Sequence record: MZ375239.1
DNA from: Escherichia phage T7
Reading direction: 5' to 3' (one strand)
Length of the DNA: 39,105 nt
This document shows positions 751 through 7,916 of the stretch, in pieces; position 1 is the stretch's first letter, and each line of letters opens with the position of its first letter. The position numbers and the translations under genes were made by a program. Under the pieces are notes generated by a model, which saw only the letters and a list, made by a program, of their open reading frames with translations, had not been told where the DNA came from and searched no databases.

Positions 751-859
751 TGAAACGACAGTGAGTCACCACACTGAAAGGTGATGCGGTCTAACGAAAC
801 CTGACCTAAGACGCTCTTTAACAATCTGGTAAATAGCTCTTGAGTGCATGACTAGCGGA

Positions 860-895
860 TAACTCAAGGGTATCGCAAGGTGCCCTTTATGATAT
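860..895 (+). promoter_or_regulatory. RNase III processing hairpin R0.3
   Basis: Imperfect hairpin actcaagggtatcgcaaggtgcccttta just upstream of gene 0.3; position matches T7 R0.3. Confidence 0.55.
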
Positions 896-924
896 TCACT
901 AATAACTGCACGAGGTAACACAAG

Positions 925-1278
925 ATGGCTATGTCTAACATGACTTACAACAACGTTTTCGACCACGCTTACGAAATGCTGAAAGAAAACATCCGTTATG
1001 ATGACATCCGTGACACTGATGACCTGCACGATGCTATTCACATGGCTGCCGATAATGCAGTTCCGCACTACTACGCTGACATCTTTAGCGTAATGGCAAG
1101 TGAGGGCATTGACCTTGAGTTCGAAGACTCTGGTCTGATGCCTGACACCAAGGACGTAATCCGCATCCTGCAAGCGCGTATCTATGAGCAATTAACGATT
1201 GACCTCTGGGAAGACGCAGAAGACTTGCTCAATGAATACTTGGAGGAAGTCGAGGAGTACGAGGAGGATGAAGAGTAA
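925..1278 (+). CDS. 0.3: Ocr, DNA-mimic anti-restriction protein (gp0.3)
   Basis: 117-aa ORF, very acidic, sequence [22 protein letters not shown]... recognised as T7 Ocr; same coordinates as T7 reference. Confidence 0.97.
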
Positions 1279-1322
1279 TGTCTACTACCAACGTGCAATA
1301 CGGTCTGAACGCTATCTCATAA
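1278..1322 (+). pseudogene. 0.4: Truncated remnant of gene 0.4 (14 codons; first 10 match gp0.4 [10 protein letters not shown], then out-of-context NAIS-stop)
   Basis: ATG overlapping the 0.3 stop (TAATG); reading frame diverges from gp0.4 after codon 10 at a deletion junction near 1308/1309. Confidence 0.75.
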
Positions 1323-1344
1323 CGAACATAAAGGACACAATGCA

Positions 1345-2424
1345 ATGAACATTACCGACATCATGAACGCTATCGACGCAATCAAAGCACTGCCAATCTG
1401 TGAACTTGACAAGCGTCAAGGTATGCTTATCGACTTACTGGTCGAGATGGTCAACAGCGAGACGTGTGATGGCGAGCTAACCGAACTAAATCAGGCACTT
1501 GAGCATCAAGATTGGTGGACTACCTTGAAGTGTCTCACGGCTGACGCAGGGTTCAAGATGCTCGGTAATGGTCACTTCTCGGCTGCTTATAGTCACCCGC
1601 TGCTACCTAACAGAGTGATTAAGGTGGGCTTTAAGAAAGAGGATTCAGGCGCAGCCTATACCGCATTCTGCCGCATGTATCAGGGTCGTCCTGGTATCCC
1701 TAACGTCTACGATGTACAGCGCCACGCTGGATGCTATACGGTGGTACTTGACGCACTTAAGGATTGCGAGCGTTTCAACAATGATGCCCATTATAAATAC
1801 GCTGAGATTGCAAGCGACATCATTGATTGCAATTCGGATGAGCATGATGAGTTAACTGGATGGGATGGTGAGTTTGTTGAAACTTGTAAACTAATCCGCA
1901 AGTTCTTTGAGGGCATCGCCTCATTCGACATGCATAGCGGGAACATCATGTTCTCAAATGGAGACGTACCATACATCACCGACCCGGTATCATTCTCGCA
2001 GAAGAAAGACGGTGGCGCATTCAGCATCGACCCTGAGGAACTCATCAAGGAAGTCGAGGAAGTCGCACGACAGAAAGAAATTGACCGCGCTAAGGCCCGT
2101 AAAGAACGTCACGAGGGGCGCTTAGAGGCACGCAGATTCAAACGTCGCAACCGCAAGGCACGTAAAGCACACAAAGCTAAGCGCGAAAGAATGCTTGCTG
2201 CGTGGCGATGGGCTGAACGTCAAGAACGGCGTAACCATGAGGTAGCTGTAGATGTACTAGGAAGAACCAATAACGCTATGCTCTGGGTCAACATGTTCTC
2301 TGGGGACTTTAAGGCGCTTGAGGAACGAATCGCGCTGCACTGGCGTAATGCTGACCGGATGGCTATCGCTAATGGTCTTACGCTCAACATTGATAAGCAA
2401 CTTGACGCAATGTTAATGGGCTGA
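1345..2424 (+). CDS. 0.7: Ser/Thr protein kinase and host transcription shutoff protein (gp0.7)
   Basis: 359-aa ORF; length and sequence match T7 gp0.7; basic Arg/Lys-rich C-terminal region. Confidence 0.95.
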
Positions 2425-2429
2425 TAGTC

Positions 2430-2465
2430 TTATCTTACAGGTCATCTGCGGGTGGCCTGAATAGG
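2430..2465 (+). promoter_or_regulatory. RNase III processing hairpin R1
   Basis: Hairpin acaggtcatctgcgggtggcctga between genes 0.7 and 1. Confidence 0.55.
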
Positions 2466-2494
2466 TACGATTTACTAACTGGAAGAGGCACTAA

Positions 2495-5146
2495 ATGAAC
2501 ACGATTAACATCGCTAAGAACGACTTCTCTGACATCGAACTGGCTGCTATCCCGTTCAACACTCTGGCTGACCATTACGGTGAGCGTTTAGCTCGCGAAC
2601 AGTTGGCCCTTGAGCATGAGTCTTACGAGATGGGTGAAGCACGCTTCCGCAAGATGTTTGAGCGTCAACTTAAAGCTGGTGAGGTTGCGGATAACGCTGC
2701 CGCCAAGCCTCTCATCACTACCCTACTCCCTAAGATGATTGCACGCATCAACGACTGGTTTGAGGAAGTGAAAGCTAAGCGCGGCAAGCGCCCGACAGCC
2801 TTCCAGTTCCTGCAAGAAATCAAGCCGGAAGCCGTAGCGTACATCACCATTAAGACCACTCTGGCTTGCCTAACCAGTGCTGACAATACAACCGTTCAGG
2901 CTGTAGCAAGCGCAATCGGTCGGGCCATTGAGGACGAGGCTCGCTTCGGTCGTATCCGTGACCTTGAAGCTAAGCACTTCAAGAAAAACGTTGAGGAACA
3001 ACTCAACAAGCGCGTAGGGCACGTCTACAAGAAAGCATTTATGCGAGTTGTCGAGGCTGACATGCTCTCTAAGGGTCTACTCGGTGGCGAGGCGTGGTCT
3101 TCGTGGCATAAGGAAGACTCTATTCATGTAGGAGTACGCTGCATCGAGATGCTCATTGAGTCAACCGGAATGGTTAGCTTACACCGCCAAAATGCTGGCG
3201 TAGTAGGTCAAGACTCTGAGACTATCGAACTCGCACCTGAATACGCTGAGGCTATCGCAACCCGTGCAGGTGCGCTGGCTGGCATCTCTCCGATGTTCCA
3301 ACCTTGCGTAGTTCCTCCTAAGCCGTGGACTGGCATTACTGGTGGTGGCTATTGGGCTAACGGTCGTCGTCCTCTGGCGCTGGTGCGTACTCACAGTAAG
3401 AAAGCACTGATGCGCTACGAAGACGTTTACATGCCTGAGGTGTACAAAGCGATTAACATTGCGCAAAACACCGCATGGAAAATCAACAAGAAAGTCCTAG
3501 CGGTCGCCAACGTAATCACCAAGTGGAAGCATTGTCCGGTCGAGGACATCCCTGCGATTGAGCGTGAAGAACTCCCGATGAAACCGGAAGACATCGACAT
3601 GAATCCTGAGGCTCTCACCGCGTGGAAACGTGCTGCCGCTGCTGTGTACCGCAAGGACAAGGCTCGCAAGTCTCGCCGTATCAGCCTTGAGTTCATGCTT
3701 GAGCAAGCCAATAAGTTTGCTAACCATAAGGCCATCTGGTTCCCTTACAACATGGACTGGCGCGGTCGTGTTTACGCTGTGTCAATGTTCAACCCGCAAG
3801 GTAACGATATGACCAAAGGACTGCTTACGCTGGCGAAAGGTAAACCAATCGGTAAGGAAGGTTACTACTGGCTGAAAATCCACGGTGCAAACTGTGCGGG
3901 TGTCGATAAGGTTCCGTTCCCTGAGCGCATCAAGTTCATTGAGGAAAACCACGAGAACATCATGGCTTGCGCTAAGTCTCCACTGGAGAACACTTGGTGG
4001 GCTGAGCAAGATTCTCCGTTCTGCTTCCTTGCGTTCTGCTTTGAGTACGCTGGGGTACAGCACCACGGCCTGAGCTATAACTGCTCCCTTCCGCTGGCGT
4101 TTGACGGGTCTTGCTCTGGCATCCAGCACTTCTCCGCGATGCTCCGAGATGAGGTAGGTGGTCGCGCGGTTAACTTGCTTCCTAGTGAAACCGTTCAGGA
4201 CATCTACGGGATTGTTGCTAAGAAAGTCAACGAGATTCTACAAGCAGACGCAATCAATGGGACCGATAACGAAGTAGTTACCGTGACCGATGAGAACACT
4301 GGTGAAATCTCTGAGAAAGTCAAGCTGGGCACTAAGGCACTGGCTGGTCAATGGCTGGCTTACGGTGTTACTCGCAGTGTGACTAAGCGTTCAGTCATGA
4401 CGCTGGCTTACGGGTCCAAAGAGTTCGGCTTCCGTCAACAAGTGCTGGAAGATACCATTCAGCCAGCTATTGATTCCGGCAAGGGTCTGATGTTCACTCA
4501 GCCGAATCAGGCTGCTGGATACATGGCTAAGCTGATTTGGGAATCTGTGAGCGTGACGGTGGTAGCTGCGGTTGAAGCAATGAACTGGCTTAAGTCTGCT
4601 GCTAAGCTGCTGGCTGCTGAGGTCAAAGATAAGAAGACTGGAGAGATTCTTCGCAAGCGTTGCGCTGTGCATTGGGTAACTCCTGATGGTTTCCCTGTGT
4701 GGCAGGAATACAAGAAGCCTATTCAGACGCGCTTGAACCTGATGTTCCTCGGTCAGTTCCGCTTACAGCCTACCATTAACACCAACAAAGATAGCGAGAT
4801 TGATGCACACAAACAGGAGTCTGGTATCGCTCCTAACTTTGTACACAGCCAAGACGGTAGCCACCTTCGTAAGACTGTAGTGTGGGCACACGAGAAGTAC
4901 GGAATCGAATCTTTTGCACTGATTCACGACTCCTTCGGTACCATTCCGGCTGACGCTGCGAACCTGTTCAAAGCAGTGCGCGAAACTATGGTTGACACAT
5001 ATGAGTCTTGTGATGTACTGGCTGATTTCTACGACCAGTTCGCTGACCAGTTGCACGAGTCTCAATTGGACAAAATGCCAGCACTTCCGGCTAAAGGTAA
5101 CTTGAACCTCCGTGACATCTTAGAGTCGGACTTCGCGTTCGCGTAA
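2495..5146 (+). CDS. 1: T7 DNA-directed RNA polymerase (single-subunit)
   Basis: 883-aa ORF beginning MNTINIAKNDFSDIELAAIPFNTLADHYGERLAREQLALEHESYEMGEARF, the canonical T7 RNAP. Confidence 0.99.
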   Translation: MNTINIAKNDFSDIELAAIPFNTLADHYGERLAREQLALEHESYEMGEARFRKMFERQLKAGEVADNAAAKPLITTLLPKMIARINDWFEEVKAKRGKRPTAFQFLQEIKPEAVAYITIKTTLACLTSADNTTVQAVASAIGRAIEDEARFGRIRDLEAKHFKKNVEEQLNKRVGHVYKKAFMRVVEADMLSKGLLGGEAWSSWHKEDSIHVGVRCIEMLIESTGMVSLHRQNAGVVGQDSETIELAPEYAEAIATRAGALAGISPMFQPCVVPPKPWTGITGGGYWANGRRPLALVRTHSKKALMRYEDVYMPEVYKAINIAQNTAWKINKKVLAVANVITKWKHCPVEDIPAIEREELPMKPEDIDMNPEALTAWKRAAAAVYRKDKARKSRRISLEFMLEQANKFANHKAIWFPYNMDWRGRVYAVSMFNPQGNDMTKGLLTLAKGKPIGKEGYYWLKIHGANCAGVDKVPFPERIKFIEENHENIMACAKSPLENTWWAEQDSPFCFLAFCFEYAGVQHHGLSYNCSLPLAFDGSCSGIQHFSAMLRDEVGGRAVNLLPSETVQDIYGIVAKKVNEILQADAINGTDNEVVTVTDENTGEISEKVKLGTKALAGQWLAYGVTRSVTKRSVMTLAYGSKEFGFRQQVLEDTIQPAIDSGKGLMFTQPNQAAGYMAKLIWESVSVTVVAAVEAMNWLKSAAKLLAAEVKDKKTGEILRKRCAVHWVTPDGFPVWQEYKKPIQTRLNLMFLGQFRLQPTINTNKDSEIDAHKQESGIAPNFVHSQDGSHLRKTVVWAHEKYGIESFALIHDSFGTIPADAANLFKAVRETMVDTYESCDVLADFYDQFADQLHESQLDKMPALPAKGNLNLRDILESDFAFA

Positions 5147-5798: not shown

Positions 5799-6878
5799 AT
5801 GATGAACATTAAGACTAACCCGTTTAAAGCCGTGTCTTTCGTAGAGTCTGCCATTAAGAAGGCTCTGGATAACGCTGGGTATCTTATCGCTGAAATCAAG
5901 TACGATGGTGTACGCGGGAACATCTGCGTAGACAATACTGCTAACAGTTACTGGCTCTCTCGTGTATCTAAAACGATTCCGGCACTGGAGCACTTAAACG
6001 GGTTTGATGTTCGCTGGAAGCGTCTACTGAACGATGACCGTTGCTTCTACAAAGATGGCTTTATGCTTGATGGGGAACTCATGGTCAAGGGCGTAGACTT
6101 TAACACAGGGTCCGGCCTACTGCGTACCAAATGGACTGACACGAAGAACCAAGAGTTCCATGAAGAGTTATTCGTTGAACCAATCCGTAAGAAAGATAAA
6201 GTTCCCTTTAAGCTGCACACTGGACACCTTCACATAAAACTGTACGCTATCCTCCCGCTGCACATCGTGGAGTCTGGAGAAGACTGTGATGTCATGACGT
6301 TGCTCATGCAGGAACACGTTAAGAACATGCTGCCTCTGCTACAGGAATACTTCCCTGAAATCGAATGGCAAGCGGCTGAATCTTACGAGGTCTACGATAT
6401 GGTAGAACTACAGCAACTGTACGAGCAGAAGCGAGCAGAAGGCCATGAGGGTCTCATTGTGAAAGACCCGATGTGTATCTATAAGCGCGGTAAGAAATCT
6501 GGCTGGTGGAAAATGAAACCTGAGAACGAAGCTGACGGTATCATTCAGGGTCTGGTATGGGGTACAAAAGGTCTGGCTAATGAAGGTAAAGTGATTGGTT
6601 TTGAGGTGCTTCTTGAGAGTGGTCGTTTAGTTAACGCCACGAATATCTCTCGCGCCTTAATGGATGAGTTCACTGAGACAGTAAAAGAGGCCACCCTAAG
6701 TCAATGGGGATTCTTTAGCCCATACGGTATTGGCGACAACGATGCTTGTACTATTAACCCTTACGATGGCTGGGCGTGTCAAATTAGCTACATGGAGGAA
6801 ACACCTGATGGCTCTTTGCGGCACCCATCGTTCGTAATGTTCCGTGGCACCGAGGACAACCCTCAAGAGAAAATGTAA
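5799..6878 (+). CDS. 1.3: ATP-dependent DNA ligase
   Basis: 359-aa ORF with the ligase adenylation motif region AEIKYDGVRG (KxDG); matches T7 gp1.3. Confidence 0.95.
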   Translation: MMNIKTNPFKAVSFVESAIKKALDNAGYLIAEIKYDGVRGNICVDNTANSYWLSRVSKTIPALEHLNGFDVRWKRLLNDDRCFYKDGFMLDGELMVKGVDFNTGSGLLRTKWTDTKNQEFHEELFVEPIRKKDKVPFKLHTGHLHIKLYAILPLHIVESGEDCDVMTLLMQEHVKNMLPLLQEYFPEIEWQAAESYEVYDMVELQQLYEQKRAEGHEGLIVKDPMCIYKRGKKSGWWKMKPENEADGIIQGLVWGTKGLANEGKVIGFEVLLESGRLVNATNISRALMDEFTETVKEATLSQWGFFSPYGIGDNDACTINPYDGWACQISYMEETPDGSLRHPSFVMFRGTEDNPQEKM

Positions 6879-6883
6879 TCACA

Positions 6884-6916
6884 CTGGCTCACCTTCGGGT
6901 GGGCCTTTCTGCGTTT
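6884..6916 (+). terminator. Early terminator TE (rho-independent, E. coli RNAP)
   Basis: GC-rich hairpin ggctcaccttcgggtgggcc followed by tttctgcgttt immediately after the ligase gene. Confidence 0.85.
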
Positions 6917-6928
6917 ATAAGGAGACAC

Positions 6929-6951
6929 TTTTACGACTCACTAAAGGAGGT
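6929..6951 (+). promoter_or_regulatory. T7 RNAP promoter phi1.5 with altered upstream edge (positions -16 and -15 read TT instead of AA)
   Basis: ttttacgactcactaaaggaggt; -14 to +6 intact, upstream AT-rich recognition element changed by the gene 1.4 deletion junction. Confidence 0.6.
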
Positions 6952-6958
6952 ACACACC

Positions 6959-7048
6959 ATGATGTACTTAATGCCATTACTCATCGTCATTGTAGGATGC
7001 CTTGCGCTCCACTGTAGCGATGATGATATGCCAGATGGTCACGCTTAA
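6959..7048 (+). CDS. 1.5: gp1.5, small hydrophobic protein of unknown function
   Basis: 29-codon ORF MMYLMPLLIVIVGCLALHCSDDDMPDGHA; position matches T7 gene 1.5. Confidence 0.7.
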   Translation: MMYLMPLLIVIVGCLALHCSDDDMPDGHA

Positions 7049-7068
7049 TACGACTCACTAAAGGAGAC
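7046..7068 (+). promoter_or_regulatory. T7 RNAP promoter phi1.6
   Basis: taatacgactcactaaaggagac; +1 at 7063. Confidence 0.9.
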
Positions 7069-7073
7069 ACTAT

Positions 7074-7334
7074 ATGTTTCGACTTCATTACAACAAAAGC
7101 GTTAAGAATTTCACGGTTCGCCGTGCTGACCGTTCAATCGTATGTGCGAGCGAGCGCCGAGCTAAGATACCTCTTATTGGTAACACAGTTCCTTTGGCAC
7201 CGAGCGTCCACATCATTATCACCCGTGGTGACTTTGAGAAAGCAATAGACAAGAAACGTCCGGTTCTTAGTGTGGCAGTGACCCGCTTCCCGTTCGTCCG
7301 TCTGTTACTCAAACGAATCAAGGAGGTGTTCTGA
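7074..7334 (+). CDS. 1.6: gp1.6, unknown function
   Basis: 86-aa ORF; matches T7 gene 1.6 length and position. Confidence 0.85.
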
Positions 7335-7916
7335 TGGGACTGTTAGATGGTGAAGCCTGGGAAAAAGAAAACCCGCCAGTACAAGCAACTGGGTGTATAG
7401 CTTGCTTAGAGAAAGATGACCGTTATCCACACACCTGTAACAAAGGAGCTAACGATATGACCGAACGTGAACAAGAGATGATCATTAAGTTGATAGACAA
7501 TAATGAAGGTCGCCCAGATGATTTGAATGGCTGCGGTATTCTCTGCTCCAATGTCCCTTGCCACCTCTGCCCCGCAAATAACGATCAAAAGATAACCTTA
7601 GGTGAAATCCGAGCGATGGACCCACGTAAACCACATCTGAATAAACCTGAGGTAACTCCTACAGATGACCAGCCTTCCGCTGAGACAATCGAAGGTGTCA
7701 CTAAGCCTTCCCACTACATGCTGTTTGACGACATTGAGGCTATCGAAGTGATTGCTCGTTCAATGACCGTTGAGCAGTTCAAGGGATACTGCTTCGGTAA
7801 CATCTTAAAGTACAGACTACGTGCTGGTAAGAAGTCAGAGTTAGCGTACTTAGAGAAAGACCTAGCGAAAGCAGACTTCTATAAAGAACTCTTTGAGAAA
7901 CATAAGGATAAATGTT

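Follow-up and report, generated by a model that had tools for sequence, protein, structure and literature searches.

Sequence record MZ375239.1, assigned to Escherichia phage T7 (39,105 nucleotides; this whole stretch of DNA is referred to below as the window), presents gene 0.3 and gene 0.7 separated by a single ORF of 14 codons. The question raised by this locus is how the genes that occupy the interval in T7, from 0.4 to 0.6, came to be missing, which other elements disappeared with them, and what the loss would mean for the early genes that were kept.

The deletion junction and what it removed

Base-by-base comparison with V01146/NC_001604 shows that T7 1309–1984 (equivalently 1305–1980), a segment of 676 bp, is absent from MZ375239.1. 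Read from the left, the window is identical to the reference through position 1308 and first differs at base 1309, and read from the right, identity extends back to window 1305, which corresponds to T7 1981; in this walk from both sides, no mismatch to T7 was found between 700 and 2600 apart from the gap itself. The BLAST blocks flanking the gap overlap by the four bases CTGA, and no filler or inserted bases are present at the junction, so that the arrangement is that of a microhomology deletion, with a short direct repeat at both parental end points and one copy left (Table 1). The CTGA repeat is suggestive rather than overwhelming, since microhomology of at least 4 bp is expected at ~1.6% of random junctions by chance and is found at 2.6% of the possible junction pairs in the interval. 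The left end point lies 27-31 nt inside gene 0.4, at codon 10/11, and the right end point lies 14-18 nt 5′ of the stop of the 0.6B-frame ORF and 36 nt upstream of the gene 0.7 start.

These results bear out most of what the first-pass annotation had proposed for the region. The alignment to V01146/NC_001604 that it had suggested as a check gave the one gap expected for an early-region deletion of 676 bp, the junction that it had placed at about 1308/1309 and the divergence at base 1309 both proved exact, and the short microhomology that it had predicted was found. Its claim that every landmark from gene 0.7 to the ligase is displaced by -676 relative to the T7 map also holds, with gene 0.7 at 1345 versus 2021, gene 1 at 2495 (window 2495-5146) versus 3171, and the ligase at 5799-6878 versus 6475-7554. 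Likewise, gene 0.3 ends at 1278 as described and is followed by an overlapping ORF that runs for 14 codons from the ATG at 1278 to a stop at 1322. The description of the junction as a fusion of the gene 0.4 start to the gene 0.7 leader needs refining in its 3′ half: the 3′ partner is the tail of the 0.6B-frame ORF and not simply leader sequence. In the parental genome this partner is T710L_4, which ends in ...ANTLNAIS* and has its stop, once the sequence is corrected, at T7 1998, and the remnant ORF is therefore an in-frame fusion of the first 10 codons of 0.4 to the last 4 of the 0.6B-frame ORF.

Table 1. Coordinates of features around the junction, of the sibling deletions and of the base substitutions (window positions unless T7 is named)
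Feature	Position	Strand	Details
R0.3-type RNase III hairpin upstream of gene 0.3, unaltered; 5′ end predicted for the fused mRNA	853..901	+	wild-type shape kept: lower stem, internal loop, upper stem of 9 bp
Gene 0.3 (Ocr anti-restriction protein), intact	925..1278	+	117-aa ORF; identical to T7 925-1278
14-codon remnant ORF	1278..1322	+	gp0.4 codons 1-10 joined in frame to the final 4 codons plus stop of the corrected 0.6B-frame ORF
Deletion junction	1305..1308		one copy of CTGA kept; 4-bp direct repeat at T7 1305-1308 and 1981-1984
Gene 0.7 Shine-Dalgarno AAGGA, kept	1331..1335	+	9 nt before ATG; identical to T7 2007-2011
Gene 0.7 (seryl-threonyl protein kinase / host shut-off), intact	1345..2424	+	359-aa ORF; 0 mismatches to T7 2021-3100
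R1-type RNase III hairpin between 0.7 and 1, unaltered; 3′ end predicted for the fused mRNA	2426..2472	+	fold identical to T7 3102-3148
Type A deletion, 676 bp	T7 1305/9-1980/4		CTGA (4 bp); window and 16 records
Type B deletion, 563 bp	T7 1341/2-1903/4		1 bp; T7_30L (MZ375237), T7_50L (MZ375241), about 40 records
Type C deletion, 1480 bp	T7 1244/57-2723/36		13-bp repeat AGGAAGTCGAGGA; T7_20L (MZ375235), T7_30S (MZ375238)
RNAP Q184R	3045		T7 A3721G
gp11 A153E	23853
gp12 T468A	25411
gp16 G809S	32187		T7 33019
gp16 K1158R	33235		T7 34067
gp16 A1193V	33340		T7 34172
gp17 K214E	34431
Non-coding T162C	162		just past the left terminal repeat
Non-coding, right end	38740		T7 39572; downstream of 19.5
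Non-coding, right end	38758		T7 39590; downstream of 19.5
Non-coding, right end	38760		T7 39592; downstream of 19.5

The genes on either side of the junction were left undisturbed. The TAATG stop/start overlap of gene 0.3 with the ORF that follows it is preserved, and 22 nt, including AAGGA, separate the remnant ORF from the start of gene 0.7; judged by their sequences, Ocr and the gp0.7 kinase are intact, ribosome-binding sites included. A two-codon ORF (ATG CAA TGA) at window 1340-1348 overlaps the gene 0.7 start codon; wild type has it as well, and it probably has no bearing here.

The size of the deletion depends slightly on the reference that is chosen. Within the deleted interval, at T7 1896/1897, one A more than in the reference is present both in AY264774, a resequenced wild type, and in T7_10L (MZ375233), the earliest clone of the lineage to which the window belongs (see below), each of 39,938 bp, so that the parent in fact lost 677 bp. 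In the resequenced wild-type T7, compared with V01146/NC_001604, this extra A alters the 0.6B frame, which ends at T7 1998 and not at 1972, and the missing A may be the reason why NC_001604 annotates 0.6B as made by frameshifting, with its end at 1972. The T7_10L record also has an indel at 578 and begins one base later.

According to the annotation of NC_001604, the lost interval contains gene 0.4 (1278-1433), gene 0.5 (1496-1639), promoter B (1514), gene 0.6A (1636-1797), and gene 0.6B (to 1972). Together with a predicted fold for the RNase III site R0.5, this annotation agrees with the losses listed in the first-pass annotation, namely the distal part of 0.4, 0.5, 0.6A/B, E. coli promoter B, and R0.5. 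Residues 11–51 of gp0.4 are removed and a 14-residue peptide is left. This protein is an FtsZ inhibitor whose FtsZ-contact residues fall within V15-Y39, W28 and L35 among them (PMC13423816), and because all of these lie past residue 10, its function is not retained by the remnant. In addition, gp0.4 triggers the CapRel(Ebc) defence (PMC13423816), and a clone without gp0.4 would be predicted to escape from it.

Predicted processing of the early mRNA

In a sliding RNA fold of the wild-type sequence, the same hairpin shape appears at 853-901 (R0.3), 1428-1479 (R0.5), and 3102-3148 (R1), and in the window the R0.3- and R1-type hairpins remain, along with structures in coding regions that are found in both genomes. 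The hairpin at 853-901 is presumably R0.3 itself, with the role in RNase III cleavage that belongs to established T7 knowledge from Dunn and Studier in 1983, and we take the hairpin at 2426-2472 likewise to be cleaved by RNase III, from established knowledge. R0.5, an early-region RNase III site of T7 (PMC3643576), has no annotation in the T7 records, and a typical bipartite hairpin with a predicted energy of -25.9 kcal/mol folds at T7 1428-1479, between 0.4 and 0.5. A further candidate site, 'R0.7', which would lie near T7 1986 and might be cut in two by the deletion, was rejected, as T7 1925-2035 contains no hairpin and the sliding fold gives the R0.3, R0.5, and R1 shapes only.

At the junction itself no hairpin was found, and the region folds more weakly than shuffled controls. 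A scan of window 850-2550 found neither a sigma-70-like promoter nor a terminator-like site on the + strand, that of the early transcript, so that the junction creates neither. The proposal of the first-pass annotation that no RNase III site is left between 0.3 and 0.7 is consistent with the fold scan, in which the R0.5 hairpin is gone and no substitute hairpin takes its place. Since the R0.3 and R1 hairpins alone remain, the junction is unstructured, and no new promoter or terminator was found, it is reasonable to infer that 0.3, the mini-ORF, and 0.7 would be carried on one RNase III-processed early mRNA of ~1.57 kb, extending from R0.3 to R1. Gene 1 would, in addition, be expected to enter the cell and to be transcribed ~0.68 kb earlier.

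A more specific benefit can be imagined, in which this particular junction was favoured because it keeps the 0.3/0.4 overlap and the in-frame mini-ORF, so that ribosomes leaving the highly translated 0.3 would be coupled to 0.7 on the uncleaved mRNA and expression of the kinase would be raised or advanced. We regard this as quite improbable; if it were true, 0.3-0.7 coupling would account for the persistence of the 676-bp allele beside a 563-bp allele (type B, Table 1) for hundreds of transfers.

Lineage of the genome and its designed edit

Aligned to NC_001604, the window falls into three collinear blocks; its 39,105 bp contain 11 substitutions, and its first and last 160 bases are identical to each other, representing both 160-bp terminal repeats. 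A 76-nt query spanning the junction, searched with BLAST against a phage collection, matched in one piece 16 records of the MZ3752xx series, each named 'Mutant Escherichia phage T7 clone', 10 of the 16 at 100%. These records come from CiPGr, an experiment that took T7 through 300 serial transfers on E. coli hosts equipped with Cas9 and with spacers supplied as a plasmid library (Yuan, Shi, Jiang & Ma, Nucleic Acids Res 2022; PMC9825161). The repair templates supplied in CiPGr have two 50-bp arms and were designed to remove either non-essential genes in full ('cassette-gene') or stretches of 100 bp ('cassette-100'), and large- and small-plaque clones, designated T7_nnL/S, were sequenced every 10 transfers (PMC9825161). 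The resulting genomes were deposited as MZ375233-MZ375294, in which 233 is 10L, 234 is 10S, 237 is 30L, 238 is 30S, 241 is 50L, and 242 is 50S; on this numbering MZ375239 would be T7_40L.

On the strength of these matches and of its own sequence, MZ375239.1 is a complete 39,105-bp T7 genome of the CiPGr lineage. Its junction is identical base for base in T7_50S (MZ375242) and T7_70L (MZ375245), which also share its exact deletion of the 1.4 ORF; later clones differ from MZ375239.1 in carrying additional deletions (4.7, 3.8, and others), and none of the CiPGr genomes in the phage collection has exactly the same set of changes. Among T7 records in that collection from outside CiPGr, including the passage-adapted AY264775 and AY264776, the 676-bp junction was not found. 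A junction 28-mer likewise gave 0 matches in viral, metagenome, and genome contig collections, and thus no sign of independent recurrence elsewhere.

The same comparisons bear on whether anything was lost at all. That the gap reflects an assembly or sequencing artefact, or that the record represents a natural T7-like phage which never had 0.4-0.6, is scarcely credible, given that the junction occurs in sixteen separately assembled genomes, that its flanks are 100% identical to T7, and that both terminal repeats are present. That part of gene 0.4 and the end of the 0.6B-frame ORF survive indicates loss rather than primary absence.

The second deletion in the window removes T7 7608-7763 (156 bp, at window 6931/6932). 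These bases make up the gene 1.4 ORF precisely, ATG and TAA included, and the two ends share 0 bp of microhomology. Because of these exact ORF ends and the absence of microhomology, the loss of 1.4 is the signature of a designed CiPGr edit from a 'cassette-gene' template, and sibling clones carry the same deletion plus an exact deletion of gene 4.7 at 13927-14334. The 1.4 deletion also sets the phi1.5 promoter beside the TE terminator region.

As for the substitutions relative to NC_001604 (Table 1), all seven of those in coding regions are nonsynonymous. The changes in gp11, gp12, and gp17 are present already in T7_10L and hence belong to the laboratory background, while T162C, A3721G (Q184R), and the changes at T7 33019, 34067, and 34172 are common to the window, T7_50L, and T7_70L, and those at 39590/39592 are shared by the window and T7_50L only. 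The presence of Q184R and the gp16 changes in later clones too suggests adaptive sweeps during passage.

Could the early-region deletion also have been designed, as the product of homologous recombination between the phage and one of the CiPGr templates? The genome does carry one designed deletion, and templates for 0.4, 0.5, and 0.6 were supplied in the experiment. However, the designed deletions of 1.4 and 4.7 run exactly from start to stop codon without microhomology and cassette-100 removes 100 bp, whereas here 676/677 bp are gone, the end points lie inside ORFs, three to four genes are spanned, and a 4-bp repeat marks the junction. Multi-gene fragment losses are, moreover, described as undesigned in the source paper (PMC9825161), and a designed origin is accordingly most improbable.

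It follows from these deposits that the 676-bp junction is already known: it stands in 16 records, and the loss at the level of genes is mentioned in the source paper. The discovery value is therefore small, in that the deletion, though genuine, comes from an engineered lineage that has been published, with the junction many times in GenBank. For annotation, the genome should be labelled as CiPGr-derived T7 without 0.4 (functionally), 0.5, 0.6A/B, and 1.4, and the 14-codon ORF should not be called 0.4.

Origin of the deletion and comparison with known escape deletions

Non-essential genes were the targets in CiPGr, with 0.4-0.6 among those removed, and loss of a 0.3–0.6 fragment was reported there as undesigned and probably due to escape from CRISPR (PMC9825161). 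Within this one experiment, three independent junctions take out 0.4-0.6 (Table 1). Types B and C resemble type A, the deletion in the window, in that 0.4-0.6, promoter B, and R0.5 are gone in one event, in being undesigned, and in coming from the same passage series; they differ from it in their end points and in the extent of homology, which is 1 bp in type B and 13 bp in type C versus 4 bp in type A. The single base of exact homology in type B sits within an imperfect similarity of 12 bp, and the repeats of type C lie at T7 1244-1256 and 2724-2736. Type B is commoner than type A among the deposited clones (about 41 versus 16), and both coexist from transfer 30-50 onward. In type C, as seen at T7_20L 925-1620, residues 1 to ~110 of Ocr are fused in frame to the C-terminal, non-kinase part of gp0.7, so that the kinase domain is lost, whereas the window keeps 0.3 and 0.7 whole. 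The 0.3::0.7 fusion of type C was deposited as 'protein kinase'.

Considering this evidence together, the loss in this CiPGr-lineage clone was very probably an undesigned, microhomology-mediated deletion of 676 bp that was selected under Cas9 targeting. Repeated loss of these targeted genes through different joins, in passage on a Cas9 library, is in keeping with selection for escape. The course of events would begin with a Cas9 cut somewhere in 0.4-0.6, after which the flanks may have been joined by T7 resection and annealing at the CTGA microhomology, or by copy-choice during replication; the product would then have been selected, since a single event would rid the phage of every protospacer in 0.4, 0.5, and 0.6 and leave its essential functions unharmed. 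Deletions joined at microhomologies in non-essential regions are a documented route by which phages escape from Cas nucleases, as in lambda under Cas12a, where escape deletions pre-exist in the stock and are then selected (PMC10132644). For this reason the Cas9 cut may have been either the inducer of the deletion or the selector of a pre-existing one.

A related possibility is that the deletion arose spontaneously, by slippage or recombination at short direct repeats, and rose because a short early region was advantageous or neutral, with Cas9 having no role. In its favour, the phage can do without 0.4-0.6, the 1480-bp deletion of the siblings was joined at a 13-bp direct repeat of the kind typical of spontaneous T7 deletions, microhomology deletions are known to pre-exist in phage stocks (PMC10132644), and the two main deletion types coexist from transfer 30-50 without obvious linkage to plaque size. 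Such an origin is nevertheless unlikely, in that the first 20-50 transfers on the Cas9 library already yielded three different junctions, each removing the targeted 0.4-0.6 genes, the authors of the experiment ascribe such losses to CRISPR escape (PMC9825161), and the junction occurs in no T7 record from another laboratory, AY264775 and AY264776 included. With selection under Cas9 as the preferred reading, the three junctions over one interval illustrate how T7 can escape from multiplexed Cas9 targeting via microhomology deletions.

T7 readily deletes between short direct repeats: Studier and co-workers in 1979 and Dunn and Studier in 1983 reportedly described classical mutants in which early-region DNA had been lost between such repeats, and Kong and Masker in 1994 reportedly found that double-strand breaks stimulate deletion between direct repeats in T7. 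The classical mutants lost class I non-essential genes, kept one copy of the repeat, and had fused early mRNAs when an RNase III site was removed; the present deletion differs from them in having arisen, very probably, under Cas9 selection and in using 4 bp only. Closer parallels are provided by other phages exposed to Cas nucleases. Survivors of lambda under Cas12a carry large deletions joined at microhomologies, as here, although both phage and nuclease differ (PMC10132644), and the 'CEMs' of T4 under Cas9, as cited by Yuan et al., are likewise large microhomology-joined deletions in a non-essential targeted region. What would set the CiPGr case apart from those of lambda and T4 is that the library hits several adjacent genes, so that one deletion would allow escape from several spacers.
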